A stretch of 64,000 bases of DNA from a virus (IMGVR_UViG_3300010052_000153:1-64000), one strand, 5' to 3'; positions 6,858 to 59,089 are shown, counted from the stretch's first letter. The notes: generated by a model not told the origin, from the letters alone. A program made the numbers and translations.

Positions 6858-7546
6858 GCCGCCTCCCGTTCCCTCTTGGGCTCGTTGTCGTTCTCAGCCA
6901 ACACCTTGTAGGTGTGACTTGCGGCAGTCAGGAAGACGATCACGCCTTCGGGTTTTGCGAATCCCGGCGCAGCGACGGACCCTTCCGTCACGAGCTTGGT
7001 CATTGTCTCGTCGACCGCCGTTGTTGAGAAGTCACCGGCATACAACACCGGAACCACGCCGCAGCAGGCAGGCCGGTCATTCGACCAGCGACCAGCGTTG
7101 AATAGTGAGAAGCGGCGCTCTTTCAGGTCGTATCCACGCTGAATGCCGAGACCCCACCACTCGCCAAAATGGCGACCAACGCCGAGCTCACGCAATTCGT
7201 CGGTGTGCTTCTGCACCCACGCCGCGAAGCCAAAATTGTCGTTATCCGGAGTGATCCACCGATTGCGACTACCCGCGCGTACGCTGCCGTCTTCGCCAAC
7301 GACAATCTGCGCATTCGTGCCGTCAATCTTTTCGGTGATGATGCAGCCGCGCTTAAGGCGCGGGATTTTCGGGAACGGAACGTATTTTTCTGCGCGACTA
7401 TCGACAAACGACTTCCAATCATCCCAACCGCGGTCGAGAGTGGACCAATCGCCAGCGCGCCAAGCCTTTAGAAAAGGCTGCGTCTCGTGCAGATCCAAGG
7501 TGACCGCGAAGTCGATCGCCAAATTGAAATCCTCGTAGCGGTGCAT
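6854..7546 (-). CDS. ATP-dependent RNA ligase family protein
   Basis: Nucleotidyltransferase motif I TEKIDGTN, plus SRNR, FGEWWG, FSLFN and EGVIV; start ATG 7546 behind GGAGG. Confidence 0.8.
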   Translation of the reverse strand: MHRYEDFNLAIDFAVTLDLHETQPFLKAWRAGDWSTLDRGWDDWKSFVDSRAEKYVPFPKIPRLKRGCIITEKIDGTNAQIVVGEDGSVRAGSRNRWITPDNDNFGFAAWVQKHTDELRELGVGRHFGEWWGLGIQRGYDLKERRFSLFNAGRWSNDRPACCGVVPVLYAGDFSTTAVDETMTKLVTEGSVAAPGFAKPEGVIVFLTAASHTYKVLAENDNEPKREREAA

Positions 7547-7547
7547 C

Positions 7548-8000
7548 TCACCCTCCGACAGAAAATTCAGGTTGTTCGGCTTGCTTGGTTTCAGTGTCCG
7601 CGACCGGCGGCTCGCCGTCGAACTCGACGCCACCCGGCACGAGCTCGTCAGCATCGCCAGGCACGCGCGCGGTGACAGTCCCTTCCCCATCTAACGCCGC
7701 CTGCAGGTCGTTTGCGCTAGCTACTGAATAGGGCAGGACATAGTAGACGGCCGGCTGATTGGGCGACGCCAGCAACGCGTAGATTGCAACGTCGGGGACG
7801 ATCTGCGCGCCCACTACGGTGTAATGGCCGGCAGGGGGTGACGTGAAACGGGGCTGCCCCAACGGCACGTACAAGGCGAGCGCTGCGGCAGCGATCGCAG
7901 GCGTCAGCGTCAGAGCCGCCAGCCGGCTTGATGCAAGCCAAGCGAATGCACACAGCAGTAGCGCCAACGCCAACCATGTCGTTGCAATGACCATTGTCAT
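7548..8000 (-). CDS. Membrane protein, third gene of MotA/ExbB-like triad
   Basis: Two N-terminal hydrophobic helices followed by a soluble domain; coupled to upstream gene. Confidence 0.7.
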   Translation of the reverse strand: MTMVIATTWLALALLLCAFAWLASSRLAALTLTPAIAAAALALYVPLGQPRFTSPPAGHYTVVGAQIVPDVAIYALLASPNQPAVYYVLPYSVASANDLQAALDGEGTVTARVPGDADELVPGGVEFDGEPPVADTETKQAEQPEFSVGG

Positions 8001-37118: not shown

Positions 37119-37193
37119 TGGTCAAGGTGGTGGGACTAGAACCCACGTTCCGAGCTTCCAAAGCTCAGCGATTAGCCGCCATCTTCCACCCTG
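37119..37193 (-). tRNA. tRNA-Pro(UGG), atypical
   Basis: Acceptor CAGGGTG/CACCTTG-A-CCA; anticodon loop TTTGGAA; T-arm GTGGG-TTCTAGT-CCCAC; G8 and A37 deviate from consensus. Confidence 0.65.
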
Positions 37194-37468
37194 CAAGGGT
37201 GGGTCGCGGTCGGTCTTCGGCGCTCATTTGAAGATGCTCCCGAGAGAAGGCTGTACGGCGTTCCGTAGGGCGAGCCAGTATATTCGGGCCATCCCTTTGA
37301 CTGCCGTGCATGACAGTACGGCGTCGCACTGGCGCAGAAGCGCGAGGGTGTCGTTTATGGTAATCTCCGCTTTGAAAGGAGACCGATTGTCGTGCAAATT
37401 TGCGCACTCGGTCCAACATGCGCGATGACTGGCAGGTCGCCTTATCGATGCGGTGCCAGCCGGAGGGT

Positions 37469-37545
37469 TGGTTGCGGGGGTCGGATTTGAACCGACGACC
37501 TCCAGCTTATGAGGCTGGCGAGCTACCGGGCTGCTCTACCCCGCA
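37469..37545 (-). tRNA. tRNA-Met(CAU), initiator-like scaffold
   Basis: TGCGGGGTAGAGCAGCCCGGTAGCTCG CCAGC CTCATAA GCTGG AGGTC GTCGG TTCAAAT CCGAC CCCCGCA ACCA. Confidence 0.9.
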
Positions 37546-38803: not shown

Positions 38804-39313
38804 TCAGGCGACGGACGTCGAGGGCGATGATGAATTATCGTTGGATGTTATCCACGTGCGCACGAGCCGTTCCGCTTGATCGGCGGCATCAGAACGGTTG
38901 ATGGCGCGAACAACGGCGACAGTGTGACCCAAGGATTTTAGTGCACGATGGCGAGTGACCTGGCTCGGCAGAAGGGCGGCTTCGCCTACCTTGTTCTCAA
39001 TGAAGGCCACACGGGCGCCCAGCAGATAGACACGGACGTCGGGCTCACCCGCGGTCATTCCGGCAGCTATCGCTTGCGACCTCGCCTTGGGTCCACGACG
39101 TGCCGCATTCTGATCACCGGCGAGGAGGAACGTCTTGCCGTGTTCCGGCATCGCACGCAGCCGCTTGATCTGCTCGGCCTGCAACTCCCATTCCTCTGGC
39201 AGCGCCGGCTTAGTGGTGACCTTGCCGTTGGGGTTGGTTGTGATGGTGGTACGAACGCCGTTGACGCGGACGGTCTGCTGCGTGCGTCGGGTCGACGATT
39301 TGCGGTAGGGCAT
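38804..39313 (-). CDS. VRR-NUC/PD-(D/E)XK nuclease (resolvase-like)
   Basis: E.ELQ, G...G.PD, FIENK and Q...H..L..LG..V.VVR motifs; start ATG 39313. Confidence 0.75.
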   Translation of the reverse strand: MPYRKSSTRRTQQTVRVNGVRTTITTNPNGKVTTKPALPEEWELQAEQIKRLRAMPEHGKTFLLAGDQNAARRGPKARSQAIAAGMTAGEPDVRVYLLGARVAFIENKVGEAALLPSQVTRHRALKSLGHTVAVVRAINRSDAADQAERLVRTWITSNDNSSSPSTSVA

Positions 39314-39349
39314 TGGGTGTCTTTCCGAATGCGATTTATAAGGTGGGCT

Positions 39350-39640
39350 TTCGGAAAGTCTGAAAGTCTGGATCGACATTCGTTCCGGAAAGTCTGAAAG
39401 GCGAAACCGGCATCCTTTCCAGAAAGTCGACTTTCTGATTTTTTAGCAGGAGAAAGTGTCGGAAAATCCTATAGGGGAATTTCCGACTTTCTACCTTTCG
39501 AGACTTTCCGACTTTCGCGAGATTTTCCGGGAGACTTTCGAAAGTCGACTTTCCGACTTTCCGGAGACTTTCGGGGAGACTTTCGAAAGTCTCTAAGCGA
39601 GACTTTCCGACTTTCCGGAGACTTTCTTAGAGACTTTCCG
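39350..39640. repeat. Iteron-like GACTTTC/GAAAGTC repeat array, candidate replication origin
   Basis: About 13 GACTTTC and 6 inverted copies by hand count; palindromes GAAAGTCGACTTTC (39422, 39540) and GAGACTTTCGAAAGTCTC (39576); 26-bp direct repeat at 39547 and 39601. Confidence 0.75.
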
Positions 39641-39809
39641 GGGCAGGATGGGTGAGGCAGGCGGGTGATTGGTGCCGATACTCGGGGACTAAAAAAGCGT
39701 ACCCCGAAGGTAACGACTGCATCTGGATATATAGGAAAATCGAACGCTCAAATCAAAGCTCGACAATAGCGGCGGGTAGCGGTGCGCTATGGCGGCACGC
39801 TGGGATCGG

Positions 39810-40094
39810 CTAAGACTTCGGCTCTTGCTGTGACGCTATCTCGGCGTCTCTGGATTGCTTACTCCCGCCCCTCGAGGCGCGCACCAATCGCGACCTGTCG
39901 AGATGTGCCCACTGCTCCCCCGACTTGACGGCGGACACAGTTCTAATCGACACGCCGTAATCTGCAGCGATCATTCTGTAGGGTCGTGGATCTTCAATGA
40001 TCGCGATTGCTTGTTTCTCGGAAAGGCGAGCGCCGGGGTGCAATTCCCCACCGCCAGAACGCTTCGGAGGCACGTTCTGCACCACGGTACGCAA
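39810..40094 (-). CDS. Stand-alone HTH resembling the C-terminus of phage HNH endonucleases
   Basis: GELHPGARLSE..., IAADYGVSIRTVSAVKSGEQWAHL; TTG start behind GAGG. Confidence 0.55.
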   Translation of the reverse strand: MRTVVQNVPPKRSGGGELHPGARLSEKQAIAIIEDPRPYRMIAADYGVSIRTVSAVKSGEQWAHLDRSRLVRASRGGSKQSRDAEIASQQEPKS

Positions 40095-40167
40095 AGCTGA
40101 TACCTCATTTTTTTGTGAAGCACGTCATGCGGCGCGCCTTGCCTTAGCATACGAGTCTCTGGGCATC

Positions 40168-40205
40168 AAAAAAGAAAAGAGCCGCCCCCTTTTCGGGGGC
40201 GGCTC
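40168..40205 (-). terminator. Strong Rho-independent terminator of the S-layer-like gene
   Basis: 11-bp stem gagccgccccc/gggggcggctc followed by TTTTCTTTTTT, 21 bp after the stop. Confidence 0.9.
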
Positions 40206-40226
40206 GTAGTCGTGTGGATGTACCGA

Positions 40227-43200
40227 TTAGATAAAGTCGGTAGCGTCGATCGTACCGGAGAAGCCGGTGATCTCAACCAAGCCTTCACCGGCGTCCAGCG
40301 TGCCGTCACCGTCCACGTCCTGGATGATCCAGGAGCGACCGAAGAGATCGCCAGCATTCGCGGTGATGATCTGCACGTCGTTGGCCGCAGCTGTAGCGAG
40401 CAGAGCGTCGATATCCGCAGTGAACGACGCCGCGCTGATGCCGCCCTGAGCCTCAGCAATGACCGCACCAATAGCGTTGGCGAAGTCAATGGTATCATCG
40501 TCGAAGTTCATGTCGGTGATGGTGTCGGTCGCTGCCGTCTGGGTAGCCAGAGTAGCACCGCCGCCAGCGAGCGAACCCGTCACATTGAACGTGTCGTCGC
40601 CTGCACCGCCAGTCAGAACGTCCGCACCAGCCCCACCGTTGATGGTGTCGTCGCCGCCACCGCCGATGATGGTATCGATGCCGCCGCCGCCCGTGATGTT
40701 CAGGCGGAGGAACGGATTGGTCACCTGGCTGGCATCGACTTCGAGCTGAGTCGTAGCCGCAGGAACGATCTCGTTGTCACGAGCTTCGATCGTCAGGGTC
40801 TCCTCAAGGCCAGCCGAAGCCGTCTGCGAGGTGTTTACCAGACGCTCAACCGTTGCATCATCGAGCTGCAGGACGGAAGTCTGGATCGCTGCAGTGTCGT
40901 TGGTGAACAGCAGCTTTCCGACGTTCGAGATGTTGGCAAGGTCGCCGACAGTCACGACAGCCGAATTGCGGACTTCGATGATGTCGAGGTTCGCAAGGTT
41001 CGACGGAGCGTTGCCTGCACCAAGGAACATGCCGCCATCAATCACGGCCATGCCATTGATGTTGGCGTCGGCCAGGATGAAGCGATCCGACTCGATCGTA
41101 GCACCTTCAGCACCATCGAAGGTGAAGCTGTGCTGTGCGTCGAGGCCGCGGGCGTCGATCGTGATACCGTTATTGGCGAAGCCAAGGCCAGTACCCGTAT
41201 CGTTGACACCGTCAGACAGGTCGTTGTCGTTGATGATGTTGACCACTCGGCCACCAGCGACATCAACGCCATTGCGGTTGATCATGTCGTTCGTGAGCAG
41301 AATGTTCTGAGCATTCTCGCCGTACTCGGTGTTGTCACCATCAGCGTCCTTGTCGTTGGCAGCAACGCCCACGCCAGCGAAACGGATGTACTCGAAGCCG
41401 GACACGTTGGTCCACTCCGACGCACCAAGGATCAGCTGCTTGCCATCGCCATCAAACAGGATGGTGTCAGTGCCTTCGCCAGCGGTGACAGTGTCGCTGA
41501 TCGTCAGACCGGCGGTGCTGTCATTACGCAGATCGAAGATGACCGTGTCGTTACCCTTGCCGAACAGCAGCGACTGTCCACCGCCAGGCTGCGCAGCGCC
41601 ATCGGCGTTGCGGAGAGTGTCGACGCGCAGAACGATGTCCCCGAGATAGGTAGAGCCATCGAACTTGGCGCCGCTGAAGCGGTCCATGTTCGGGCCGCTG
41701 GTTAGCACGTTCGCCGTATGACCAACGCCGCCGGCAGCATCGAACGGGCTCTGCGCGCTAGGATCATTGGCAAGGCCAGACTGATCCAGGTCGTAGGTGC
41801 CGCCGAAACCGCCGAAGCCGCCCGAGTCACGCGTATCGAAGTTCATGTAGGTGCCAGCAACACCACCGGTCAGCGTCAGCGTGCCGGTGATATCCGTCAA
41901 GCCACCGCCCTTGGCGTCGGTTGCGATTGCACCAGCGCCGAGCCGAACGGAGTTGGATTCCGAGTCGGTGTCGTTGATGGTGATGTTCTCAACGCCAGAA
42001 GTCTGGAGCTGAACGTTGAAGCGCGGGTCAGTGTTGATGCCCCGGTCTTCGTCATCAGCCTGATCAGTGATGTTCAGCTTGACAGTGTCGCTAGCCGTGT
42101 TGGTAGCCAACTGAGCAACGATGATGTTGCTGTCGATGCCATTGCTGCCAGTCGTGGAGTGCTGGACGGTGATCGCCTGAGCAAGCTCAGCCGACAGCTT
42201 CGTCAGGTGGGTGGTCAACTGCTCCGTCGCCGAAGTCCACGGACCGACGAAGTCCTGACCTTCGTTGCGGATCGTCACATCCTTGAGACCAGTGAAGAGC
42301 GACGTGTCAACCTTGATCAGGTCCGCAGCCGTGCCGAAGTCTTGGCCGCCACGAATGTCAAGATGCTCCAAGTTGGAGAAGCTGCCCTTGGTGACGCCAG
42401 CATAAACCTGCAGCGTATCCTCACCGCCGCCGCCGTCAACGACGTCACCGGCGCTATCTGCAACCGCCTGAAGACGGATGATGTCGTCCTGTGCTGTACC
42501 CGTAACCTTGAGGTCAACAGGGGCACCCGACGTGCCGTCCTTGGAGGCGCTGATTTCGTCGCCGATCGTAATATCGAGCGAGCCGGTGAGCGCAGAGGCA
42601 TTGATCTCGCTCAGCGAGCCAGCAACGTTGTCCAGACCGGCGCCGTGACGAATAGCCTCGAGCTGGCCCGACGGACGAACGACATCGTCAGTGGTTCCGA
42701 GGGCGAGGTCCTGGTCACCCGAAATATTGACAGTCCGAATGTCCTCGCCAGAAATGTAACCGACGGCGTTGGCCGAACCAGTCGACTTCAGGTTGAGGGT
42801 CTCGAAGCCCTGCGAACCGTTGCCGTCCACGAAGATGTCTTCGAGGGTGACGTTGTTCACAGTCAGGTTGGCAATATCGGTCTCGCCCTGAAGGGCCTTG
42901 TCCACGAAGAAGAAGTGAACGTGGCTATTCTCGTCGTTGGAGTCGGTAACCGACAGATTGATGCCAGAGGCAGGCGCCTCCTGAATGTTGTAGGCTTCGA
43001 ACAGGTTACCATCAACGCCACTAACGTTGATGTTCTTAACGCCCGTGGAATCCTGGAAATCCAGATAGCCGTCGAAGTTCAGGCGAACATCGACGTTAAC
43101 CGTCTCGACGCCCTTAAGGGTCGGGTTGATGTCGTTGTCGCCGGTGTCAGCGTCGTTGACGAAGGTGAAGTTCAGGGTCGGGTTGGTGCCCGTGCCGGTG

Positions 43201-43928
43201 AGAACGTCATCGTCGTTCAGCGTGTTGACCTGGTCGGTGCCGCCCGGGGTGAAGCCGCGCGCTGCGGTGAACACGTTGCCCGAAACGATGTCGGTGCCTT
43301 CGGTCAGACGGATGCCGGTATCCGGATCGTCCTGGTCGAAGTGCGTGCCATCAGCCGTCTCGATCGGCGTGAACACAGCGCCGTTGGTCGGCAGCTGGGC
43401 CGAACCGTCGTCGATGGCAGCGCGGAGATCGTTCACCGCATCGCCGAGACCAGCGTCTTCCGTGACGAGGATCTTGAGCAGCGAGGCGAGACCGACGATG
43501 GCAGCGCCATCCGGGCCAGCAACGCCGCGCTCGGCGGCAACGCGGGCATAAAAGTCCTGCGCTTCAGCGCGGGTGAAGAAGGCACGGCCTTCGGCAGTCT
43601 GATTTGCCGACGGAACGTAGGCGTCATAGATAGCGCCCAGCTTGTCCGACAGCGTCGCGGCGCCGGCCGTGATCGCCTGGAACTTGGCGAGAGCAGCCGG
43701 GTTGCCCTGAACCAACGCGTTGGTCAGGTTGATGAAGATGTTTTCCTGGTTGAACGTGATGCTCGGGTTGTTCGAGCCGAAGTTCGTCGACTTCGCGTTG
43801 TTGATCAGGAAGACGAAGCCGTCGATGGAGGGGACGCCTCCAAGCAGGACCTCATAAGCAGCAGCGATGCCCGAAAAGGCATCTTGGTTCGCGTCTACAA
43901 GCGCGTCCAATTCAGCTAGGGTTGCCAT
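40227..43928 (-). CDS. S-layer-like / RTX type I secretion substrate (RsaA/SapA-type architecture)
   Basis: 1233 aa, rich in G/D/N/T, no Cys, no signal peptide; helical N-terminal region; four tandem GGxGxDxUx nonapeptides near C-terminus; ends IDATDFI; AGGAG RBS. Confidence 0.8.
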   Translation of the reverse strand: MATLAELDALVDANQDAFSGIAAAYEVLLGGVPSIDGFVFLINNAKSTNFGSNNPSITFNQENIFINLTNALVQGNPAALAKFQAITAGAATLSDKLGAIYDAYVPSANQTAEGRAFFTRAEAQDFYARVAAERGVAGPDGAAIVGLASLLKILVTEDAGLGDAVNDLRAAIDDGSAQLPTNGAVFTPIETADGTHFDQDDPDTGIRLTEGTDIVSGNVFTAARGFTPGGTDQVNTLNDDDVLTGTGTNPTLNFTFVNDADTGDNDINPTLKGVETVNVDVRLNFDGYLDFQDSTGVKNINVSGVDGNLFEAYNIQEAPASGINLSVTDSNDENSHVHFFFVDKALQGETDIANLTVNNVTLEDIFVDGNGSQGFETLNLKSTGSANAVGYISGEDIRTVNISGDQDLALGTTDDVVRPSGQLEAIRHGAGLDNVAGSLSEINASALTGSLDITIGDEISASKDGTSGAPVDLKVTGTAQDDIIRLQAVADSAGDVVDGGGGEDTLQVYAGVTKGSFSNLEHLDIRGGQDFGTAADLIKVDTSLFTGLKDVTIRNEGQDFVGPWTSATEQLTTHLTKLSAELAQAITVQHSTTGSNGIDSNIIVAQLATNTASDTVKLNITDQADDEDRGINTDPRFNVQLQTSGVENITINDTDSESNSVRLGAGAIATDAKGGGLTDITGTLTLTGGVAGTYMNFDTRDSGGFGGFGGTYDLDQSGLANDPSAQSPFDAAGGVGHTANVLTSGPNMDRFSGAKFDGSTYLGDIVLRVDTLRNADGAAQPGGGQSLLFGKGNDTVIFDLRNDSTAGLTISDTVTAGEGTDTILFDGDGKQLILGASEWTNVSGFEYIRFAGVGVAANDKDADGDNTEYGENAQNILLTNDMINRNGVDVAGGRVVNIINDNDLSDGVNDTGTGLGFANNGITIDARGLDAQHSFTFDGAEGATIESDRFILADANINGMAVIDGGMFLGAGNAPSNLANLDIIEVRNSAVVTVGDLANISNVGKLLFTNDTAAIQTSVLQLDDATVERLVNTSQTASAGLEETLTIEARDNEIVPAATTQLEVDASQVTNPFLRLNITGGGGIDTIIGGGGDDTINGGAGADVLTGGAGDDTFNVTGSLAGGGATLATQTAATDTITDMNFDDDTIDFANAIGAVIAEAQGGISAASFTADIDALLATAAANDVQIITANAGDLFGRSWIIQDVDGDGTLDAGEGLVEITGFSGTIDATDFI

Positions 43929-43956
43929 ATTTTCTCCTCGAGGAATGGAATCCTGC

Positions 43957-44053
43957 CGGTAACGACTCTGTCATTACCGACTGGTGCTTGTTTAGACGCT
44001 CCGAAAGTGACGTGTCAATCGCTCTTGACAGAAAAAAGTGCTGCTCTTAGGTT
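43957..44053. promoter_or_regulatory. Back-to-back sigma70-type promoters plus 5' leader hairpin
   Basis: TGTCAA-N6-TTGACA (44013-44030) gives a perfect -35 on both strands; + strand TAGGTT 17 nt downstream; inverted repeat CGGTAACGAC-TCT-GTCATTACCG at 43957-43979. Confidence 0.6.
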
Positions 44054-44097
44054 TGCTGTACACACCGCCTGCAGCGGGCGGCGAGAGAGCAACCAAT

Positions 44098-44427
44098 ATG
44101 GCAATCTATCAACAAAAACGTGATGACCCCGAGTCTGCGCAGTTGCGTAGGGATGGTGGCGCTTGGCTGAAGACAATGCGCGAGAAGGCTGGCCACACGC
44201 AACGATCGTTTGCTGCCGTCGTCGGCGCCGACTATTACACCTTCATCTCCCAGATTGAGAACGGTCGCGGGCGCGTCCCACCGGAGCGTTACGGAGTTTG
44301 GGCCGATGCGCTTGGCATGGATCGCCGGGAATTTATGAGGCGGTTGATGCGCTTCTACGATCCCCACGCATATGAGATGTTGTTCGCACCTGTGGTTGCG
44401 AACTCGGGATCGACGAAGGCTGAATAG
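44098..44427 (+). CDS. XRE-family HTH transcriptional regulator
   Basis: G.WLK.MRE.AG.TQR.FA..VG..YYTFISQIENGRGRVPP; divergent from S-layer-like gene. Confidence 0.85.
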   Translation: MAIYQQKRDDPESAQLRRDGGAWLKTMREKAGHTQRSFAAVVGADYYTFISQIENGRGRVPPERYGVWADALGMDRREFMRRLMRFYDPHAYEMLFAPVVANSGSTKAE

Positions 44428-44561
44428 CCGCAATTCATTGGGTTGAAGCAGGCTGCGCGTTCCAGAATGCGAGCCGTCCGCAGCTCGCTCCGCATTACGT
44501 CGGCTTGGCGGAAGCCCTGCATCGAAGGCTCCGCAGTCATGCGCTAGATGCCTGCCGGGGT

Positions 44562-44786
44562 TTATTCCGCCGTCATCAAATTACGCGACCAGAGAACCAT
44601 ACCAGTTTGCTCTGACAGCGTGGCGCGATTTGCCCGGTCTCTGCCCGGCGTGCCGGCAATTTCAGCCTTAGCACGCTCCAAAGCCTGCTGGAACGTCGCA
44701 ACGACGAACTCATTTGACCTAGCTACGGTCACAAGCGGCTCACCATTCTCGCCACCAGCCCCGATCCTGAATATGTATGTGGGCAT
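44562..44786 (-). CDS. Hypothetical small protein
   Basis: MPTYIFRI start behind GAGAGG. Confidence 0.5.
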   Translation of the reverse strand: MPTYIFRIGAGGENGEPLVTVARSNEFVVATFQQALERAKAEIAGTPGRDRANRATLSEQTGMVLWSRNLMTAE

Positions 44787-44957
44787 GGTAACCTCTCTAG
44801 ATCCATCGACCATATAGGTGTGGCAGTCGGACAACGACAAGCCAGACGTAGCATTTTCAAACCGACAAAAGTGCCTCGATTACATATTGAAGGCCAATGC
44901 CTCCATTTCGCCCCGTGTTGGCGATAGCCCGGATCGGCCATTCAACAGGAGGATGAG

Positions 44958-45326
44958 ATGCTCAGGTCGCTTCGTGCGCTAATGGTTTTCACCGTTCTTG
45001 CTTCGCCTGCCTTGGGCGCAGAACTAGATGATCACTATCAGCTAGAGGGAGCGAATCCTGGAGGGACCGGAAAATACCGCGGAAGCGTCCAGATCAGGGA
45101 AACTGGTGAGACCTACCAGGTGGCATGGACGATAGGGAATCAACAGTACGCCGGAACGGGCGTGCTCCAGGGTGATACTTTCTCCATAGTCTTTCAGCCG
45201 CGGAAGGGATCTGCCGGCATCGCCGTCTACAAGCTTAAGGGTGATGGCACGCTCGAGGGATCGTGGGCAAATCTCGCCGGCACTAAACTCGGTGCCGAGA
45301 TATGGCGGCCAGACCAAGGGTTGTAG
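44958..45326 (+). CDS. Secreted small beta-barrel protein
   Basis: Signal peptide ending ALG-A; Y..EG.NP.G..Y.G.V.I...G.TY...W.IG pattern; AGGAGG RBS. Confidence 0.75.
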   Translation: MLRSLRALMVFTVLASPALGAELDDHYQLEGANPGGTGKYRGSVQIRETGETYQVAWTIGNQQYAGTGVLQGDTFSIVFQPRKGSAGIAVYKLKGDGTLEGSWANLAGTKLGAEIWRPDQGL

Positions 45327-45375
45327 GACGACTATTTCAGGCGCTCGTGCAACGTAAGTCTTTCTTCTAACGGCC

Positions 45376-45636
45376 TTAGTCCATGTCCGGAACAGAGCCC
45401 GCCTGAAACAGCACGATGGGCTCGCCGTATTCCCCGATCTTCGGGTTGGCCTCACGCGACCACGCAATGACGCCGGCGTGCTTGCTGGCCAGCCCCTGCG
45501 CCGTGCGAATGGCGCGGTCCTCAGTCTGCTGCTCGGCCGGCCCGAATGCGGCCTGTAACTCGCCGTCTTCGTCCCTGTCGAACGCAGTCACGACGATCAG
45601 CTTCGGCATTTTCGGGGTGGGGAGAATGCTCGCCAT
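45376..45636 (-). CDS. Conserved rhizobial-type hypothetical protein
   Basis: KLIVVTAFDRDEDGEL...; AAGGAG RBS. Confidence 0.65.
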   Translation of the reverse strand: MASILPTPKMPKLIVVTAFDRDEDGELQAAFGPAEQQTEDRAIRTAQGLASKHAGVIAWSREANPKIGEYGEPIVLFQAGSVPDMD

Positions 45637-45656
45637 GGTACGCGCTCCTTCTTGCG

Positions 45657-45839
45657 TCACTCGGGCTTGTGTTCGGTGCAAAACCAGATCGTGTCTTTGA
45701 CGCTGTGACGGGGGAAGCCCCATGCTCCCCATCTGCCACAGCCAGGATGCTCGCAGTCGTGGAGGTACAGCCCGGTGGGTACGCGCCGCAGTTCTACCGT
45801 CTCACCTTCAGCCAGTGGCCGCGGCGCCTCATCACTCAA
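45657..45839 (-). CDS. Small Cys/His (Zn-binding-like) protein
   Basis: CEHPGC..WG.WG....WFC.EH. Confidence 0.65.
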   Translation of the reverse strand: MSDEAPRPLAEGETVELRRVPTGLYLHDCEHPGCGRWGAWGFPRHSVKDTIWFCTEHKPE

Positions 45840-46210
45840 TTCAGCCGCCCCGTGTCCTCATTGCTAACCCGGGCTAGGGCGCGCTCCAGCAGCCACGGCA
45901 GTTCGAACGGACTGGCGACATAAACGAACTCCTCGCCATCCAGGATGGCGAGGAGGAACTCGCTTTCGACATTCGGGCCATCCGCCGCCGGAAGCGGCGC
46001 GAACCAGACCGGCGCGGTCACGTCCTTGTCTTTCCATCCTATCTGCTCGAAGAGGTCGGATGCCTCCGTCAAACGGTCGGCGATATCGGAGCGGATGCTC
46101 TCCAGATACTCCTCCCCATTGTCGATCTCGAAATAGCTTTCGAGAAGCGTTTTGGCATCGAGCCAGCCGTTCAGGAAGAAATGCCGGACCTTGTATGCGT
46201 AGAGGGTCAT
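45836..46210 (-). CDS. Hypothetical acidic protein
   Basis: ATG 46210 overlaps SRAP stop (ATGA). Confidence 0.6.
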   Translation of the reverse strand: MTLYAYKVRHFFLNGWLDAKTLLESYFEIDNGEEYLESIRSDIADRLTEASDLFEQIGWKDKDVTAPVWFAPLPAADGPNVESEFLLAILDGEEFVYVASPFELPWLLERALARVSNEDTGRLN

Positions 46211-46950
46211 GCTGCGATCACCTCTGGCGCCGGCACGATCTGCAGCAGATCGTCCGGAAGCGGCCGCTGGAGGGCCCTCGCCTGCTCCCAAGGCGCCGTG
46301 AGCCACAGCTCGACCTCTTCGCGGGTCGTGAGGATCACGGGCATTGCCTTTTCGTGGATCGGGCCGACGACGCCGTTGGGCTCCGTTGTGAGGAAGGCAT
46401 AGAGGTCGGCTTTGATTAGGCCTTCGCGGACCTTCCGCACGCTTTCCCATTGCGGCAACCAGAGCCCGGCGAAGAAGAATAGCGGTCGGTCCCCATTGAG
46501 GGCGAACCAGGCGTTGGGCATGCGCTCACCCTCGACTTTGCTCTTCGGGTCCGGCTCGGCGAAGCTGGTGACGGGCACAACGGCGCGGTTCTCTATGCCC
46601 AGCCAGCGTTGCCAGTGCTTGCTGCTCGTGTTCCTTATGTTGGTCGTACCGCCATCGGGCTCCATCCGCAGGAGATCGTTGAAGGCGTCCCTGTCGATGG
46701 CGCGACCCTTCGCCCGCAGCTTGTCGGCGCGCTTCGACGTCGCGTCCATAAGCGCCTTGGATGACGAGGGCATGCCCCATCGCGTAAGGGCGAGCTCGCG
46801 GACGCCGTCGGTACCGTTCCGCACGATTGGCGCCGAATAGTCCGGGTAGACGTCCTGGGACGGCACCAGGTTGCCAACCATGTCCCGGAAGTAGCCGGAA
46901 AGCGCGCGGATCGCCTCCTGGTTGGTGGAGTGGTTGTAAAGGTTGCACAT
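46207..46950 (-). CDS. SRAP (YedK/HMCES) abasic-site-processing protein
   Basis: N-terminal MCNLY (Cys2); RWGMP, TN.R, SFAEP, FAGLW and IH.KAMPVIL motifs. Confidence 0.9.
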   Translation of the reverse strand: MCNLYNHSTNQEAIRALSGYFRDMVGNLVPSQDVYPDYSAPIVRNGTDGVRELALTRWGMPSSSKALMDATSKRADKLRAKGRAIDRDAFNDLLRMEPDGGTTNIRNTSSKHWQRWLGIENRAVVPVTSFAEPDPKSKVEGERMPNAWFALNGDRPLFFFAGLWLPQWESVRKVREGLIKADLYAFLTTEPNGVVGPIHEKAMPVILTTREEVELWLTAPWEQARALQRPLPDDLLQIVPAPEVIAA

Positions 46951-47013
46951 GCCGTGGTGGCCCTTGTTGGGAAGAGAGTCATAGACTCGGCAGTTGACTC
47001 CTACAAGGAATTT

Positions 47014-47028
47014 GTTCTCTCTCCGTTC
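47014..47028. promoter_or_regulatory. Alphaproteobacterial LexA (SOS) box
   Basis: GTTC-TCTCTCC-GTTC matches GTTC-N7-GTTC, between divergent genes. Confidence 0.75.
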
Positions 47029-47030
47029 CC

Positions 47031-47369
47031 ATGCCCGAACCATATTGGCCGAAGCGGAAAGTCTCCTTCACGTTGATGGATGCGCACAAGGCGGGCGTCC
47101 TGCTGCGCGCGTTTTGCCGATATGACAAACAGGAGCGCTTCTTCCTGCCGGTCGACCTCGCGAAACTGTACGGCGACGTTGAGGTCGACGACGTCATGTA
47201 TCTGATGAAATGCCGATGTGGACGCAGTTTGGATGTGGGAGGCGCCTATCTCACGGCCGAGCAGAAGCAGACGGTCAAGGTGCGTAGACTGCTCAAGGTC
47301 TATTACCAGCGACGATCGGTGTGGGAGGACGTGCCATACGTCAGCATAAAGATTCGCGATGAAGGCTAG
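47031..47369 (+). CDS. Hypothetical Zn-ribbon-like protein divergent from SRAP
   Basis: C..D...(C.CG) motifs; starts 2 nt after the LexA box. Confidence 0.65.
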   Translation: MPEPYWPKRKVSFTLMDAHKAGVLLRAFCRYDKQERFFLPVDLAKLYGDVEVDDVMYLMKCRCGRSLDVGGAYLTAEQKQTVKVRRLLKVYYQRRSVWEDVPYVSIKIRDEG

Positions 47370-47552
47370 TCAAAAGCGTGCTTTTGTATTTGATTTCTCG
47401 CGGCACGTGATTATTTTAACGCTGTCGCAGCTTGCCGAGATAGCCCATACAGTGATCGAATCATTTAATTTTCAGATATAGAAAAAGCGGGCGTTTGCAA
47501 ACTTAACGCGACAGCAAACGCCAATCTTGGCCCAATTCCAATGGAGGTTTCC

Positions 47553-47651
47553 ATGGATGTCGGGCTTATGGCCTCGATGATTAGCATAGCAGCCAGCATG
47601 GTGGGGATCATTGCTTCCCTGCTGGTAATACGCCGAGAAACACGGCGTTAA
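47553..47651 (+). CDS. 32-aa single-helix membrane peptide (not in ORF track)
   Basis: GGAGG RBS; MDVGLMASMISIAASMVGIIASLLVIRRETRR; followed by a terminator. Confidence 0.6.
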   Translation: MDVGLMASMISIAASMVGIIASLLVIRRETRR

Positions 47652-47657
47652 AACGTG

Positions 47658-47689
47658 AAAGGCCCGCCCCTCGAAATGGCGGGCCTTTT
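47658..47689. terminator. Bidirectional Rho-independent terminator
   Basis: aaaggcccgcc/ggcgggccttt stem with A/T tails on both sides, between convergent genes. Confidence 0.8.
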
Positions 47690-47726
47690 GCGCGCTAGAC
47701 TGATAAATGTCTCGTTTCCCTGTCGG

Positions 47727-50048
47727 CTACGCCGCTGCCGGCAGCACCACCTTCGCCGGCTTACCGGTCCGGGTTGGCACGTAATCGTCAACCAATACGC
47801 CTTGATCGATGAGCGTTTTCAGCATTCGTGTCATGCGCTTCTTTTCGCCTTTGTCTTCAGCATCCACGCCAAGCACCCGTGCGATTGCGGCCCCAGCCCA
47901 CGGTTTGCCCTGCGGCGCCGACTTCCATTCTTCACCGTTGCGAAGGACGTTCTTCAAGTCGGCGAGGTTCTGGTCGGTTAAACCCTCCATGATCTTGTCC
48001 GCGCCGGGCCAAGGGAACTCGTCGACCACACCTGCCGTGTCCGACACACCGCCGCCAAGGTTTCCAGTGCCACCCTTCCCCGGTCTAACCCCGCCATTCC
48101 CCAAGCTCACGGTCTCCAGTTTCCGCCACTTCAAGCCGCCCGACATTTTGGTCAGATTCGACTTGCCTTGGGTGATGCTGAAGTAGCTGAAGCGCTCGTC
48201 GGTGCGCACCATGGCTTCGACCGCTTGTTCTTCCGTCATACGGTTCAACACGCGCACGGAACGGGCAGCCCCGATAAGCGACACAGCGCCGCGCGCATCT
48301 TCGACGGTTGCTTCTCGGTCGGCGACCTTTCGAAGGTGATGCACGACATCGATGGAGCAGTTGGTGTAGTCAGCGATCTGTGCCCAAAGCTTGGCGACCT
48401 TGTCGATGGCGCCATTGTCATTTTCGTTGACGCCGTGGGTCGACACAAAAGGATCGATGATCATGACATCGATGCCATTCCGCTCGATTAGTTCGACAAT
48501 GGCTTCAACCACAGGGACAACGATTTTCACGCCCTCTCGCTTGTCCTCTTTGGCGACGACCAGTTCCTGCTCGCGACCGGTGTCGAGAAACAGACGGCCT
48601 TCGAAGTCTGCGGGTTTCAGCTTGTAATGCAGGCACGCCGCCATGATGCGACGTTCCATTTCGTCACGTGGATCCTCCGCGTTAAACAGCCACACCTTGC
48701 GCTGTGGCGCCGCATCCATTCGCAGAATGCGCTTGCCGGATGTCATCGATAGCGCCTCGGCGATGCTGTTGCTGGTTTTGCCAAGGCCACCTGGCGACAC
48801 CGTCACCGACACGTATTTGCGGATGTAGTGCGTGCCAAAAACGAAGTCGCGCCGCGGCAATGTGGCGGGATCGATCCATTTAAAGGGCGTGATGAAGATG
48901 GGCTGAGCAGACGAGGTGGTGCTTTCTTCCAACACTTCCGGTTGGACAGCGGGTAAAGTGTTGGAAGTCGTGTCCACGTCCGAAGTTTGTGTGGATTCTT
49001 CGGACATGGACGGTGTCGCAGTGATGATGCGAACACCATCGCTTTCGCCGCGCTTGGCGCGCGCCTTCGCCAGACCGCGTTCGATCATCTCGCTAATGTC
49101 GACAAGGCGCGTATTGTCGTTTGCGGCGAACTGCGACTCAGGAATGTGGCGTGGCTGCCGCTGTCCGGCGTCAAGCCCGCGCTTAATCTTCGCTCGCGTT
49201 TCGCGCTCGCCGTCTGTCTGCGCCACACCGCAGGCGATCGCGGCTTCATAGAGCTGATGTTCGGCAGTCCCTCGCTCCAGCACACCAGCGCCGACCAACT
49301 GGCCTAGATTGAAGGCGCTGCGGTTCAGCTGGTAGCCACGCCCGCCCTGCCCTGTCGTTGCAAGGTCATTTAGCTCCGCTTCGACGGCGCGTTCGACGTA
49401 TGGCGTGTTTCTTCCGGGAGTATGCGTGTAGGCGCTCGTCGGCGCGGGCGTACGTTCTCGTGGGAGCACTAAGTCGAGTAGCCATTGTGGGGCATCCGCT
49501 ATAGGCGTGCTGTCCATATGGTGACCGTCCAGCCAAGCATATTGACGGCCATCGGCCACGCGGCTGCCTGGTGCAATGATGTACCCGCCATCGCCACGCA
49601 CGTCCACCGCGATGCCAAGTCCGCCGCGATTGCGAACCCCATCGACATGCCGAAAGAAGACATGCGTACCGCCCCCCATGGTTTTTGCACGGGCCGTCGT
49701 CGGGAGCGCACCATGCTTCGCTTCCATGTCGGCAAGCCAGTCATGGCCATCCCCGATGCCCGGCTTGATGTCCAGATCGAGAACCCATGCACCGATAGGA
49801 GCGCCGGTGGGCACTGCGGTCATCGCGTCGGGTTGGCGTTTCCACCATTCGCGAATTATGCGCTCGGTCTTGCTCGCGCCTCGAAAACCGTTCGGCGTGT
49901 ATGGCGTCTTCGGCGCAAGGAATTCGCCCGTGTTGGGGTCCATCTCCTCTTTCGCGCGGGCCGGAAAGACCGGCCAACCACGCGCGATGTAGGAAAGTGC
50001 GAGGCACAATGGGGATTCCGTGTCGGCAACTTTTTCCACTTTTTCCAT
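47727..50048 (-). CDS. Bifunctional primase-polymerase fused to AAA_25/RepA-like helicase
   Basis: GWPVFP, LDLD, GG.H and G.DVRGDGGYII (prim-pol); PGGLGKT, IIDP and VHHLRK (ATPase); start probably ATG 50048. Confidence 0.85.
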   Translation of the reverse strand: MEKVEKVADTESPLCLALSYIARGWPVFPARAKEEMDPNTGEFLAPKTPYTPNGFRGASKTERIIREWWKRQPDAMTAVPTGAPIGAWVLDLDIKPGIGDGHDWLADMEAKHGALPTTARAKTMGGGTHVFFRHVDGVRNRGGLGIAVDVRGDGGYIIAPGSRVADGRQYAWLDGHHMDSTPIADAPQWLLDLVLPRERTPAPTSAYTHTPGRNTPYVERAVEAELNDLATTGQGGRGYQLNRSAFNLGQLVGAGVLERGTAEHQLYEAAIACGVAQTDGERETRAKIKRGLDAGQRQPRHIPESQFAANDNTRLVDISEMIERGLAKARAKRGESDGVRIITATPSMSEESTQTSDVDTTSNTLPAVQPEVLEESTTSSAQPIFITPFKWIDPATLPRRDFVFGTHYIRKYVSVTVSPGGLGKTSNSIAEALSMTSGKRILRMDAAPQRKVWLFNAEDPRDEMERRIMAACLHYKLKPADFEGRLFLDTGREQELVVAKEDKREGVKIVVPVVEAIVELIERNGIDVMIIDPFVSTHGVNENDNGAIDKVAKLWAQIADYTNCSIDVVHHLRKVADREATVEDARGAVSLIGAARSVRVLNRMTEEQAVEAMVRTDERFSYFSITQGKSNLTKMSGGLKWRKLETVSLGNGGVRPGKGGTGNLGGGVSDTAGVVDEFPWPGADKIMEGLTDQNLADLKNVLRNGEEWKSAPQGKPWAGAAIARVLGVDAEDKGEKKRMTRMLKTLIDQGVLVDDYVPTRTGKPAKVVLPAAA

Positions 50049-50058
50049 TCTAGAGCCC

Positions 50059-50093
50059 TTTACACACGCGTGTGTATTGTGTATATGTGTGTA
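50059..50093. promoter_or_regulatory. hicAB promoter/operator
   Basis: Perfect palindrome TACACACGCGTGTGTA (50061-50076) plus a related second site; TTTACA-N17-TATATG. Confidence 0.65.
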
Positions 50094-50112
50094 GTCAATT
50101 AGGATGAATTCG

Positions 50113-50322
50113 ATGCCTAGACCAAAACACCCATTGAAGCCCCGCGAACTGGTGAAGATGCTCAAGGCTGACGGATGGGTGTGGAAGCGCAATGGCCCCG
50201 GCGACCATGTCCAGTATGTTCACCCAACGAAACCGGGGCGGGCATCGGTTGACATGGGTGCGCGGGAGATACCACTTGGCACCCTTCGGCAAATCTACAG
50301 AAGCATTGGATGGGATTGGTAA
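50113..50322 (+). CDS. hicA: HicA-family toxin (mRNA interferase)
   Basis: LKADGW....G.DH.QY.HP.KPG...V.....IP.GTL..I. Confidence 0.9.
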   Translation: MPRPKHPLKPRELVKMLKADGWVWKRNGPGDHVQYVHPTKPGRASVDMGAREIPLGTLRQIYRSIGWDW

Positions 50323-56040: not shown

Positions 56041-56276
56041 GGGGCAATCTTTCTGAACTCGTCTTTGTCGTGGTCTTCCGCGCGCGCATGAGCCTGCGCC
56101 AGGCGGATCGCGTCGTGGCGGACGATTATCCATCCGCTGGCGCGCAGATGAGCGATGATCGCATCGGCCTGTTCGCTGGCTGCGTCGGTCAATGGATAGA
56201 CGAGGCGCATGGCGCGTCGCTGGTATTCAATGAGCGCTTCCGCAATGCGCGCTCTTGGCTCAGAACGGGATGTCAT
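56037..56276 (-). CDS. Hypothetical phage protein
   Basis: 79 aa, coupled to neighbours. Confidence 0.55.
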   Translation of the reverse strand: MTSRSEPRARIAEALIEYQRRAMRLVYPLTDAASEQADAIIAHLRASGWIIVRHDAIRLAQAHARAEDHDKDEFRKIAP

Positions 56277-59076
56277 CCATTGCCCTCAAGTCGTCTTCGG
56301 AAAGATGGCTCAGCCCGCCGCGCCAATTGTCGTTGTCGGCAGACATGTCGTTGTCGTTATCTGCCACCTGCTTTTGATCTCCTGTGCGGTGGTCTAGAAC
56401 ATTCCAAAATCGGCCATTGGGCTCGACCTCGATTTCCGATGTCACGAAAAGTTCCGTCTGGCGTTCAAGCCACTCAAGCGCGGACTTAGGGAAAGGGAGC
56501 TTTCCGCCGTGACGACGCCAATACCGGTCCGCGTTCGCCTTCGCTCGCCCCCGGTGCGCCGGGCAACACCACTCATTGATAGCGTTCGGGCCACACATGT
56601 AGGCAACCTTGACGCTGTCGGGCTTTCCTCCTTTCCCTTCGTGATACCGAAAGGCTCGTGACTTTACTTCGCGCCAACGTGCATCGCCCGTCGACAAGAT
56701 CGGCGCGTCGCTTGCTTGGTCATTCAGCTTCGGCTCTGGTGCCGGGAATTGATGGCCGCATTTCCAGCAGACCTGCACCGATGCGTGCAGCTCCTCAATG
56801 CACGACGGACAGACCTTGATTGGCGCGTCGCCGTCGCCCTTCCCTGGCTTCTTCGGCTCGATCATATCTACCGGACCGTGCCGACGCAGGTTGCCGGCGA
56901 AGTCCATGTAACGACAATCGCGCTTCGGCCCGGCTGCTATGGCCGCACGGCGCCCCGCGGCGTCCGTAGCGTCGGGGTCAAACCCGAGCGGGTATATCAC
57001 CCGCGTGCCACGGCCAACGCGCTGTACGTACCGCGAGGCGGACGCTGTGGGCGCCTGGTCGACGATTAGGTCTATGCCCGGTACATTGGTGCCCGTGGAC
57101 ATGACATTGTCGTTTGTTAGTGACCAGATTTCTCCAGCCTTCAGTGCGGCAATAAGGTTGCGTCGCAAGGTCGGGTCAGTGCCGCCATGGATCACTTCGC
57201 AGGACTTGCCGGCATCTAGGACAAGGTCACGCATGTGGGTCGCGTGCGCGACGCCAGCGCAAAAGAAAAGCGCACTGCGACGATGCCCTTCGACGTCTAA
57301 AACCTCCTGAAGAATGCGACGGTTTAGTTCATCCTTGTCGACGGCCGCCTGGAGTGCCGACTTCTTGAAGTCCCCTCCCAATTTTCCGACGCCGGACACG
57401 TCTTGGCGTACCGAGGTCGGGGTCGAGGTGATCGGCGACAAATAGCCATCATCGATGCCCGCCCGGATGCCGTAGGTGTAGACCACCTTGTCGAACAGCC
57501 GATCATCGCCTTCATCCAATCGCCCGCTGTCCAGGCGATACGGCGTTGCCGTAAACCCGCATATCTTCATGTCCGGGTTGATGGCGAGTAGCGCATCGAT
57601 GAAAGTGCGATACATCGTGTTCTGCCTCGCCGGCACGAGGTGAACCTCGTCGATCAACAGCACGTCGACGTGACCGATTTCCGCAGCCTTGTTGTAGACG
57701 GTCTGGAGTTGGGCAAAGAGGATCTGCGCCGATGCGCGCCGTTGGTTTAGCGATGCCGCATAAATGCCGGCCGGGGCGAATGGATAGATACCGAGGAGCT
57801 CAAGGTAGTTGCCCTCGATTAGCTCGACGACATGCGTCACGCAGGCGACTCGTATGTCGGGATAATCGCGAAGCATCTCTTTCGAGAGCGTGGCCATCGT
57901 CATCGACTTTCCAGTGTTGTGATGCACCGTAAAGTCGCCGGTCAGATACAGATGGTCGCCGTCAAGCGCGAAGCCGTAGTAGTCTCCAACTCCGATCGGC
58001 TCGACAGTGAAGCTTGTCACAAGCGGGGACTTCTTCTGCAGTCGCGGCAGGGCCTGCTTGCGCTTTATCCTAGTAGGAATGGAATGAGTGTCACCAGAGA
58101 TAGACACTCGCCAATACGATCCACCGCGTCCGTTCTGGTCGCGCTTTTGGCATACCTTCGCATAGGCCGCGAAACCTAGACTTCGCGAGATAAAAGCGAC
58201 GTCTTCCGCAAGTTGCTTCGATTTGGAAATAAAGTCGAACGAGTTAGGTCCGGCTAGGCTCCCATCTGTGTCGATGATTCCGGCGAGCAATTCCAAGCGG
58301 TCATCACGACTTGAAGTCTTGTAGGCGTGTGGAACGCACTTTTCCTCACATCGCAGGCCATATACCCCAGCCGATTGCAGCTTGATCACCAATTTGTTGC
58401 GGCGAGTGTTCCTGGCATTGTCATCGGAAGCGTGCACAGAAACGGCGATGTTATCTGGCTTCTGTCTAACGCGGCACCGAAGACCAATTGCCTCGACATA
58501 TTCTTGAAACTCATTGATGACTGCGTCGTCGGCATTCGTGATCGAAACGCCGTTTGTCATACTGCCGTCGCCGAGAAGAATTCCTATTATCCAGGCGGGG
58601 ACAGGGAGCGGATTGTCGTTGGCTGGAAACTCAACCCCTGTCCGCCAGAGCTTGTGCAGGTGCTTCCAATTCGCAGACTTAACGAGATAATCCGATAGAC
58701 GAACGTTCTTGACCTCGCCACCTGACGTTTTGCAGGCGGGATAGCGCACCGCTACGGCGCCTTGGTTTGTGGTTTTCAAGGACAGAATATGTCCTTCATT
58801 CACAACAAACGGATCCCCCTTCGTTGGGGTTACTCGATACATCATCTCACGACCACGCGCCAAGGAAAGCACGCGCCGAGGGCGGCTATCCGGCCCCATG
58901 ACGTTATCGTTTGCAGCGACGAGTTCGACAGGCTTGGTTGTGCCGTCGTGCATGAGAATTTGGGTGCCGGCTGCATGGCATCCAGTGGCCATGTCGATAA
59001 GCGGATGGCCGGGGGTCTCTGCCCAATAGGCAAAGACGGAGTCCACGGCCTCCCGCTGGTAGTAGCGAAGTGGCAT
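56260..59076 (-). CDS. SF2 (DEAD/H-like) helicase with intein and C-terminal Zn ribbon
   Basis: LRYYQ, ATG|TGKS, IDEVH, TATP, STG...P.ID and QRVGRG motifs; C..C....C..C; ends DDIPF. Confidence 0.9.
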   Translation of the reverse strand: MPLRYYQREAVDSVFAYWAETPGHPLIDMATGCHAAGTQILMHDGTTKPVELVAANDNVMGPDSRPRRVLSLARGREMMYRVTPTKGDPFVVNEGHILSLKTTNQGAVAVRYPACKTSGGEVKNVRLSDYLVKSANWKHLHKLWRTGVEFPANDNPLPVPAWIIGILLGDGSMTNGVSITNADDAVINEFQEYVEAIGLRCRVRQKPDNIAVSVHASDDNARNTRRNKLVIKLQSAGVYGLRCEEKCVPHAYKTSSRDDRLELLAGIIDTDGSLAGPNSFDFISKSKQLAEDVAFISRSLGFAAYAKVCQKRDQNGRGGSYWRVSISGDTHSIPTRIKRKQALPRLQKKSPLVTSFTVEPIGVGDYYGFALDGDHLYLTGDFTVHHNTGKSMTMATLSKEMLRDYPDIRVACVTHVVELIEGNYLELLGIYPFAPAGIYAASLNQRRASAQILFAQLQTVYNKAAEIGHVDVLLIDEVHLVPARQNTMYRTFIDALLAINPDMKICGFTATPYRLDSGRLDEGDDRLFDKVVYTYGIRAGIDDGYLSPITSTPTSVRQDVSGVGKLGGDFKKSALQAAVDKDELNRRILQEVLDVEGHRRSALFFCAGVAHATHMRDLVLDAGKSCEVIHGGTDPTLRRNLIAALKAGEIWSLTNDNVMSTGTNVPGIDLIVDQAPTASASRYVQRVGRGTRVIYPLGFDPDATDAAGRRAAIAAGPKRDCRYMDFAGNLRRHGPVDMIEPKKPGKGDGDAPIKVCPSCIEELHASVQVCWKCGHQFPAPEPKLNDQASDAPILSTGDARWREVKSRAFRYHEGKGGKPDSVKVAYMCGPNAINEWCCPAHRGRAKANADRYWRRHGGKLPFPKSALEWLERQTELFVTSEIEVEPNGRFWNVLDHRTGDQKQVADNDNDMSADNDNWRGGLSHLSEDDLRAMDDIPF
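57916..58980 (-). mobile_element. Intein (355 aa) with LAGLIDADG homing endonuclease, inserted in helicase Walker A
   Basis: Starts with Cys (CHAAGT), ends HHN followed by +1 Thr; ILLGDGS and LAGIIDTDGS motifs; splicing restores MATGTGKS. Confidence 0.92.
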
Positions 59077-59089
59077 CAAAAACCTAGAA

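Follow-up and report, generated by a model that had tools for sequence, protein, structure and literature searches.

The window analysed here is a 64,000-nucleotide (nt) stretch of viral DNA, the first 64 kb of an IMG/VR provirus (IMGVR_UViG_3300010052_000153) of 82,927 bp with a CheckV completeness of 100%. It contains a gene, slp, whose product P0001 is homologous to RsaA, the surface-layer (S-layer) protein of Caulobacter crescentus, and a divergent gene for an XRE-family regulator. The RsaA-type S-layer protein and its cognate XRE regulator probably constitute a self-transcribed moron, carried in a variable slot of a temperate myovirus of Rhizobiaceae type.

P0001 is a homologue of RsaA, an S-layer protein

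The gene and the regions encoding the parts of its product are listed below.

40227..43928, minus strand: slp gene (P0001), a single open reading frame (ORF) of 3702 nt encoding 1233 amino acids (aa), RsaA-family S-layer-type protein
43329..43928, minus strand: N-terminal helical anchor (aa 1-200), RsaA_NTD-like by family profile and Foldseek
40695..43328, minus strand: beta-rich body (aa 201-1078), from the AlphaFold model, Foldseek and VIA
40590..40694, minus strand: RTX nonapeptide repeats (aa 1079-1113), Pfam PF00353
40230..40589, minus strand: C-terminal region (aa 1114-1233) ending in DFI, a presumed uncleaved type I secretion signal

Searches with the single sequence recognized little beyond the repeats. 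Pfam matched the RTX repeats alone (PF00353, HemolysinCabind, aa 1079-1113, 34.1 bits against a cut-off of 23), NCBIfam assigned no family, PHROGs gave just a weak match of unknown function, and phmmer against the Protein Data Bank (PDB) retrieved only RTX modules. The modules matching the C-terminal end in PDB searches were those of AlgE and serralysin, and serralysin RTX domains covered the last 370 residues of the structural model. A search of 5.8 billion proteins revealed a large family of about 1100-1400 aa around P0001, with members in Rhizobiaceae metagenome-assembled genomes (MAGs), Arvimicrobium flavum (at least five paralogs), Nitrosomonas, Undibacterium, Desulfobacter and others; proteins of about 880 aa have just the anchor in common with P0001, at 63-66% identity. 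The best solved structure for a profile of 40 family members was RsaA (5n8p, E = 1.9e-26), a match for which the profile was needed. Profile positions 3-280 aligned to the N-terminal domain of RsaA (residues 46-321, domain E = 1e-14), a separate stretch matched in the middle of the body, and the C-terminal end (999-1196) aligned to RsaA 812-1015. The family consensus C-terminus is D-F-x-x.

We compared structural models of the two halves of P0001 with solved structures. The AlphaFold model of aa 1-260 is helical (pLDDT 84.5), and in Foldseek it was significant for 6t72_A alone, the N-terminal domain (NTD) of RsaA bound to lipopolysaccharide (LPS; E = 4e-5, TM-score 0.56/0.60), together with 6z7p_A, the composite S-layer model; the next match stood at E = 0.67. 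The model of aa 201-1233 is beta-rich (pLDDT 87.6, pTM 0.80), and its six best Foldseek matches were all RsaA chains (E = 3.5e-10 to 2.5e-9, prob 1.00). In VIA-align, RsaA was the sole match spanning the whole of this model (Z 11.2-11.4, 613-629 residues aligned). Profile alignment and predicted structures thus establish P0001 as a true RsaA homologue across its anchor domain, body and RTX C-terminal end, and its anchor is predicted to bind LPS, specifically O-antigen.

P0001 has a computed isoelectric point (pI) of 4.05 and no cysteine, and no N-terminal signal peptide was found by inspection. The first-pass annotation, made from the sequence of the window, had described a helical N-terminus, an acidic beta-rich body and C-terminal RTX repeats without a signal peptide, arranged as in RsaA, and had recommended a Foldseek comparison with the RsaA structure. 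The models, the pI and the PF00353 match bear out this description, the three parts stand in the RsaA order, and RsaA ranked first for both models.

The gene lies in a variable slot between conserved phage genes

slp is flanked by phage genes for more than 25 kb on both sides in a CheckV-complete provirus, so that its description as phage-borne in the first annotation holds. Upstream of slp are genes for an intein-bearing helicase, an N6/N4 methylase, a primase-polymerase (prim-pol) and an SRAP protein; downstream are an endonuclease-like gene, two tRNAs and genes for a gpZ-like protein, TerL, portal, protease, major capsid, baseplate, sheath and tape measure. Beyond the window, the same provirus also encodes an S24 repressor and a tyrosine integrase, and the cultured relatives by prim-pol are Rhizobium and Sinorhizobium phages. 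On its gene content, the provirus is a temperate myovirus of a Rhizobiaceae-type, Rhizobium-like host. The slot occupied by slp and its two anchoring genes are as follows.

39380..47726: variable cargo slot, 8348 bp, between the phrog_824 endonuclease-like gene and prim-pol
47727..50192, minus strand: prim-pol/helicase, upstream anchor of the slot (PHROG 906; Pfam Prim-Pol, AAA_25)
38804..39379, minus strand: phrog_824 endonuclease-like gene, downstream anchor of the slot (PHROG 824, 2.2e-22)

For comparison, 58 related IMG/VR proviruses were fetched by prim-pol. The prim-pol and phrog_824 genes are syntenic in 42 of them, and there the slot measures 221-4667 bp (median about 2.1 kb), compared with 8348 bp here; this size range indicates different cargo in different phages. 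None of the 58 contains slp, the XRE gene or the SRAP gene. Since the gap varies in size among the relatives and the gene is absent from them, slp sits in a hypervariable cargo slot. A search for flanking direct repeats or insertion sequence (IS) elements that would explain the capture of slp found none. Judged by sequence, slp looks like a moron: it is an accessory gene set among conserved phage genes, missing from the related phages, and it has its own predicted promoter and terminator.

Other observations concern the slot itself. In the related proviruses (L083-L128) it lies at about 12.1-16.8 kb of each locus. In the window, the same slot also contains a 122-aa ORF (44958-45326, plus strand) that runs opposite to the phage genes, has a clear signal peptide and may be a second moron. 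A dense GACTTTC/GAAAGTC array occupies 39349-39645, between a 94-aa ORF and the phrog_824 gene and ahead of the packaging module; it includes several perfect palindromes as well as three tandem units of 45 nt and could be a protein-binding array, for example a late-gene operator or a pac-like site.

Expression signals and codon use

The following signals surround the slp reading frame.

43934..43939, minus strand: Shine-Dalgarno (SD) sequence GAGGAG, by sequence reading, 5 nt upstream of the slp ATG and kept in a chromosomal homologue (L003, see below)
43955..43981, minus strand: stem-loop in the 5' untranslated region, 12-bp stem, -21.3 kcal/mol, z = -3.57 against shuffles
43990..44030, minus strand: slp promoter and candidate operator, with TTGACA at 44018-44013, a 17-nt spacer and CTAAAC at 43995-43990
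40169..40205, minus strand: intrinsic terminator of slp, stem 40205-40179 of 11 bp (10 GC pairs) followed by a T run

A sigma-70 consensus scan called no promoter at slp because CTAAAC makes a poor -10 box by the E. coli standard. The -35 box itself forms the right half of the perfect palindrome TGTCAA-N6-TTGACA (44030-44013), a plausible candidate operator.

The in-register antisense frame of slp is open as 40212-41705 and 41718-43919, since just two sense codons are of the TTA/CTA/TCA type that gives antisense stops. Both are CTA (codons 4 and 742), corresponding to 1.6 per 1000; eight further genes of the phage have 2.9-17 per 1000. The choice among synonymous codons is also skewed relative to the other phage genes, with GCT at 39% versus 13% and GGC plus GGT at 96% versus 78%. 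The 3.7-kb gene with a strong ribosome-binding site, 5' hairpin, -35 box and terminator that was first reported is therefore present in every element, as is the codon bias that leaves the antisense frame open, with two stops against 1233 codons.

slp sequence in RNA-library contigs

An index search over a 9-kb stretch showed RNA-Seq runs that contain about 0.35-0.38 of its sampled words. The contigs from X1 and X4, which belong to one study, and from X5, which belongs to another, cover slp at 99% identity or more. Their upper ends lie at 43909 (followed by adapter), 43973 and 43973, and their lower ends at 40209, 40212 and 40175; the stretch covered begins roughly 10 nt below the predicted start site and reaches the terminator. 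The two studies share the end at 43973, a weak hint of a real 5' end. The proposal that slp is a self-contained unit is in line with these data, as the contig ends fall at its own promoter and terminator signals. In X1 and X4, 5.3 kb of flanking phage DNA has no contigs except for 177 nt (47453-47629), which was not used as evidence of silence; X5 has 209 nt over the XRE gene. The 177-nt X1 contig, which matches with 0 differences, overlaps an ORF (47541-47651, plus strand) in the gap preceding prim-pol whose 36-aa product is hydrophobic and has a basic tail. This ORF, within 47453-47651, resembles either a small membrane peptide gene or a type I toxin-like locus.

A DNA run labelled as a synthetic metagenome (X6) contains pieces of slp and of the flanking phage DNA with zero differences. 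Such an exact sequence may mean that a cultured strain carries the prophage.

The XRE-slp pair also occurs in bacterial chromosomes

The regulator gene is divergent from slp.

44098..44427, plus strand: XRE-family helix-turn-helix regulator, 109 aa (Pfam HTH_31, HTH_3)

A divergent XRE gene with 50-62% identity adjoins slp homologues in six other loci: L002, a viral contig; L003, a Rhizobiaceae MAG and the closest genome; L004, from Roseovarius; and the metagenome loci L144, L174 and L189. The L003 pair is flanked by FtsK, LolA and an ammonium transporter (Amt), and because these neighbours are housekeeping genes it is not in a prophage. Sequence comparison showed that the -35 block and SD sequence of slp are common to the window and the L003 homologue. 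The presence of the pair in chromosomes with these signals kept argues that the phage captured a native chromosomal two-gene unit, signals included. Around chromosomal family members we found genes for Wzt (23 loci), Wzm (10), SapC-family proteins (7) and GT2 glycosyltransferases, a neighbourhood that agrees with an LPS-tethered coat. In Undibacterium (L040-L045, L048, L053, L063-L082), the family gene often lies on very short contigs with high coverage according to the assembler names, which suggests multi-copy paralogs breaking the assemblies.

P0001 is a mosaic. Compared with P0006, a paralog of 1185 aa, it shows 92-95% identity over aa 1-285 and then a sharp drop to about 52%. Its body is closest to P0002 and P0003 (72-73%), whose anchors are just 63-64% identical to that of P0001, and its last 163 aa are at most 51% identical to anything and 28% to P0006. 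As the anchor and body identities differ by partner, the anchor appears to track the host, presumably its O-antigen, with exchangeable bodies. P0006 appears, almost surely, to be encoded on the same 154,280-bp contig as P0001, outside the 83-kb provirus, and the near-identity of the two anchor sequences points to a recent exchange with host DNA. P0006 had no match in a metagenome scan; a scan with the family alignment found relatives at 43% identity or less, none with phage genes like those of this phage. In a plasmid collection, one distant Campylobacter DUF4214 protein matched and nothing else.

Export

No match to ABC_membrane was found anywhere in the 82,927-bp provirus, so the reported lack of type I secretion genes in the window extends to the whole phage. 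No dedicated exporter of ATP-binding cassette (ABC) and membrane fusion protein components (rsaD/rsaE-like) stands beside slp, which is a feature of the locus and not of the protein. Among the loci of the family, Roseovarius alone has an exporter adjoining the gene (type I secretion system [T1SS] ABC and HlyD). PrtD-type T1SS ABC genes scored above the curated cut-off in four bacterial genomes with family members and are unlinked to slp in the closest one; use of a host exporter is therefore the normal state for the clade and may apply to this host as well.

Anchor-tagged proteins in related viral contigs

L141 and L142 are two viral contigs whose head genes are related to those of this phage (gpZ-like 49%, portal 37.5%, major capsid protein 46%). 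Each encodes a Peptidase_M10 domain fused to an slp-type anchor that is 53-56% identical to P0001 aa 1-201 (L141:9-1322, plus strand; L142:3624-5486, minus strand), and L142 also encodes an anchor-only protein of 353 aa (2545-3606, plus strand). These anchor-tagged genes adjoin the gpZ-like gene upstream of the terminase, and the cargo has a GC content of 0.51-0.57 compared with 0.60-0.67 in the backbone. The L142 protease has the order protease, RTX, anchor. The same order is found in Sap, the S-layer-associated RTX metalloprotease of Caulobacter, where the protease and RTX parts are followed by a domain like the RsaA N-terminus (PMC3034196). The anchor-tagged proteases of L141 and L142 suggest repeated acquisition of S-layer-directed cargo in this phage group; the provirus of the window itself contains no M10 protease.

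The contig L002 encodes, at 734-2590 on the plus strand and directly upstream of its tape-measure gene, a 618-aa protein with Pfam RsaA_NTD (2.4e-31) at its C-terminal end. The GC content of this gene is about 0.49-0.52, compared with 0.62-0.67 around it. By sequence, the protein may be a phage protein that binds host LPS through the S-layer anchor fold.

Proposed role and alternative explanations

S-layers are the outermost barrier of many bacteria and serve as phage receptors in the systems studied, and prophages are known to remodel the O-antigen. In a lysogen, host RNA polymerase would transcribe slp as a stable monocistronic mRNA, with the XRE protein modulating it at the palindrome over the -35 box. 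Unfolded P0001 would leave the cell through a host PrtD/RsaD-type type I system by means of its C-terminal signal and fold with Ca2+ outside the cell. Its N-terminal domain would then dock on the O-antigen used by the resident S-layer protein, and its differing body would build or invade a lattice. The outcome would be an S-layer conversion, analogous to prophage O-antigen seroconversion, that alters the surface met by other phages, predators or a eukaryotic host. We propose tentatively, as a possible role, that the host's LPS anchor joined to a foreign lattice body re-tiles the lysogen and excludes phages or predators targeting the resident S-layer, and that slp is one arm of a wider S-layer toolkit of this phage group, another being the anchor-tagged Sap-like proteases that relatives carry near their packaging genes.

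Several points weigh against an S-layer moron of this kind. P0001 itself gave no match to Pfam RsaA_NTD (PF19198), the global TM-score between the body model and RsaA is low (0.17-0.27, root-mean-square deviation above 17 Å), and beta-helix tailspikes and autotransporters score equally on the first 350 residues of the body model. Carriage of slp by phages is rare. The check for prophage linkage in other genomes proposed by the first-pass annotation found none in the 58 related proviruses and no slp homologue in 50,697 GenBank phage records; one further IMG/VR contig, L002, has slp, and there it is located at the contig end with a cassette GC of 53-58% against a backbone of 62-67%, so that it may be host flank. 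The assembled RNA-library contigs give neither expression level, strand nor true ends, and the status of X5 as RNA is a guess. A host exporter shared by P0001 and P0006 is not assured because their last 163 aa differ so strongly. The surface lattice, secretion, receptor masking and host phenotype are steps that we infer.

The beta-helix matches also prompted consideration of a virion or tailspike role, which was rejected because slp has RTX and T1SS features, has non-phage homologues in chromosomes and lies outside the structural operon.

An unlikely alternative is that P0001 acts as an RTX adhesin or biofilm-matrix protein, secreted and tethered to LPS, that gives the lysogen new attachment properties without forming a crystalline lattice. 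RTX and beta-helix architecture is common to adhesins and autotransporters (UpaB Z 11.9 and Fap2 Z 11.0 over the first 350-420 model residues), no member of the P0001 subfamily has been studied experimentally, and the low global TM-score fits here too. However, P0001 matches RsaA in all three parts and in the RsaA order, the anchor fold matches the RsaA NTD only, RsaA is the sole full-length structural match, and the genes beside chromosomal members are those for O-antigen export and SapC instead of adhesin-type partners; these results weaken the adhesin reading. It is improbable, too, that slp is a neutral passenger, a host XRE-slp cassette acquired through recombination, either illegitimate or with the resident paralog. 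Its uniqueness among the 58 related proviruses, the cassette organization identical to that in chromosomes and the anchor nearly identical to that of P0006, apparently on the same contig, would all be explained in this way. A passenger would not be expected, however, to keep an intact 1233-codon frame with promoter, SD sequence, hairpin, terminator and strong codon optimization, nor to be found in RNA-library contigs, and related phages carry other S-layer-directed cargo, the anchor-bearing Sap-like proteases, near the same place.

The combination of a host-type anchor with a foreign body would also suit a protein that acts against the resident coat by competing for O-antigen sites and poisoning or loosening the lattice, maybe at induction for release or as a superinfection block, and the anchor-tagged metalloproteases of relatives point to S-layer attack as a theme. 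We consider this very improbable, as the promoter is sigma-70-like and common to the chromosomal homologue, slp lies outside the late operons with its own terminator, and nothing links it to the lytic programme. The least credible explanation is a chimera in which host DNA was joined to phage DNA during metagenome assembly. No read-level bridge over the junctions was seen, and none of the contigs compared spans the slot. Against this, the flanks, which the first annotation feared might prove to be host chromosome joined by misassembly, consist on either side of phage genes, arranged as in 42 relatives, with a slot that varies in all; the cassette has the same GC content as the phage; and the independent DNA run X6 holds slp and flank pieces without a difference.

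Returning to the S-layer moron, its display would represent a new route of lysogenic conversion, in which a prophage brings a whole coat protein, and a natural case of modular S-layer engineering with the same anchor and a new lattice body. If a cultured strain carries the prophage, the idea is directly testable. Full-text literature searches returned no report of a phage-borne S-layer gene, and a further one on RsaA in prophages contributed nothing. S-layers of the RsaA type are known, as are prophage morons that alter the surface; their combination was not found in the literature searched.

Other genes of the provirus

The intein-bearing helicase (56260-59079, minus strand) is a phage SNF2-type helicase whose intein has Hint and LAGLIDADG homing endonuclease domains. 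Genes for PNKP (HAD phosphatase plus kinase), a T4-type RNA ligase and a second RNA-ligase-like protein are located at 6854-7690 (minus strand) of the window and at L001:10810-13144 (plus strand; provirus 73810-76144), and the two phage tRNAs, Pro and Met, at 37119-37545. Together, PNKP, the RNA ligases and the tRNAs look like a tRNA-repair kit against anticodon nucleases.

Comparison with known systems

P0001 has the same order of parts as RsaA of Caulobacter crescentus, which is exported by RsaD/E/F (PDB 5N8P, 5N97, 6P5T, 6T72, 6Z7P). RsaA is acidic, cysteine-free and without a signal peptide (general features in PMC3034196), and so is P0001 by composition and inspection. Compared with RsaA, P0001 is 207 aa longer, and identity in structural alignments is 14-18% in the body and 24% in the anchor. 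It also differs in having no adjacent exporter genes, in being paired with an XRE regulator and in being carried by a phage.

In Campylobacter fetus, the SapA and SapB paralogs of the sap locus (with sapCDEF) share an N-terminal LPS-binding part and differ in the rest. P0001 and P0006 resemble them, with anchors 92-95% and bodies about 52% identical, and SapC-family genes lie beside seven chromosomal members of the family. Unlike in C. fetus, no promoter inversion or cassette shuffling was seen in the window, although no dedicated search was made, and the second copy comes from a prophage with its own promoter.

Prophage seroconversion morons, such as gtrABC of Shigella and Salmonella phages and those of Pseudomonas phage D3, modify surface glycans enzymatically. 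Like gtrABC, slp belongs to an accessory cassette of a temperate phage, brings its own signals for expression and is predicted to change the lysogen's outermost surface. Unlike gtrABC, it supplies a whole structural coat protein and would rely on the secretion system of the host.

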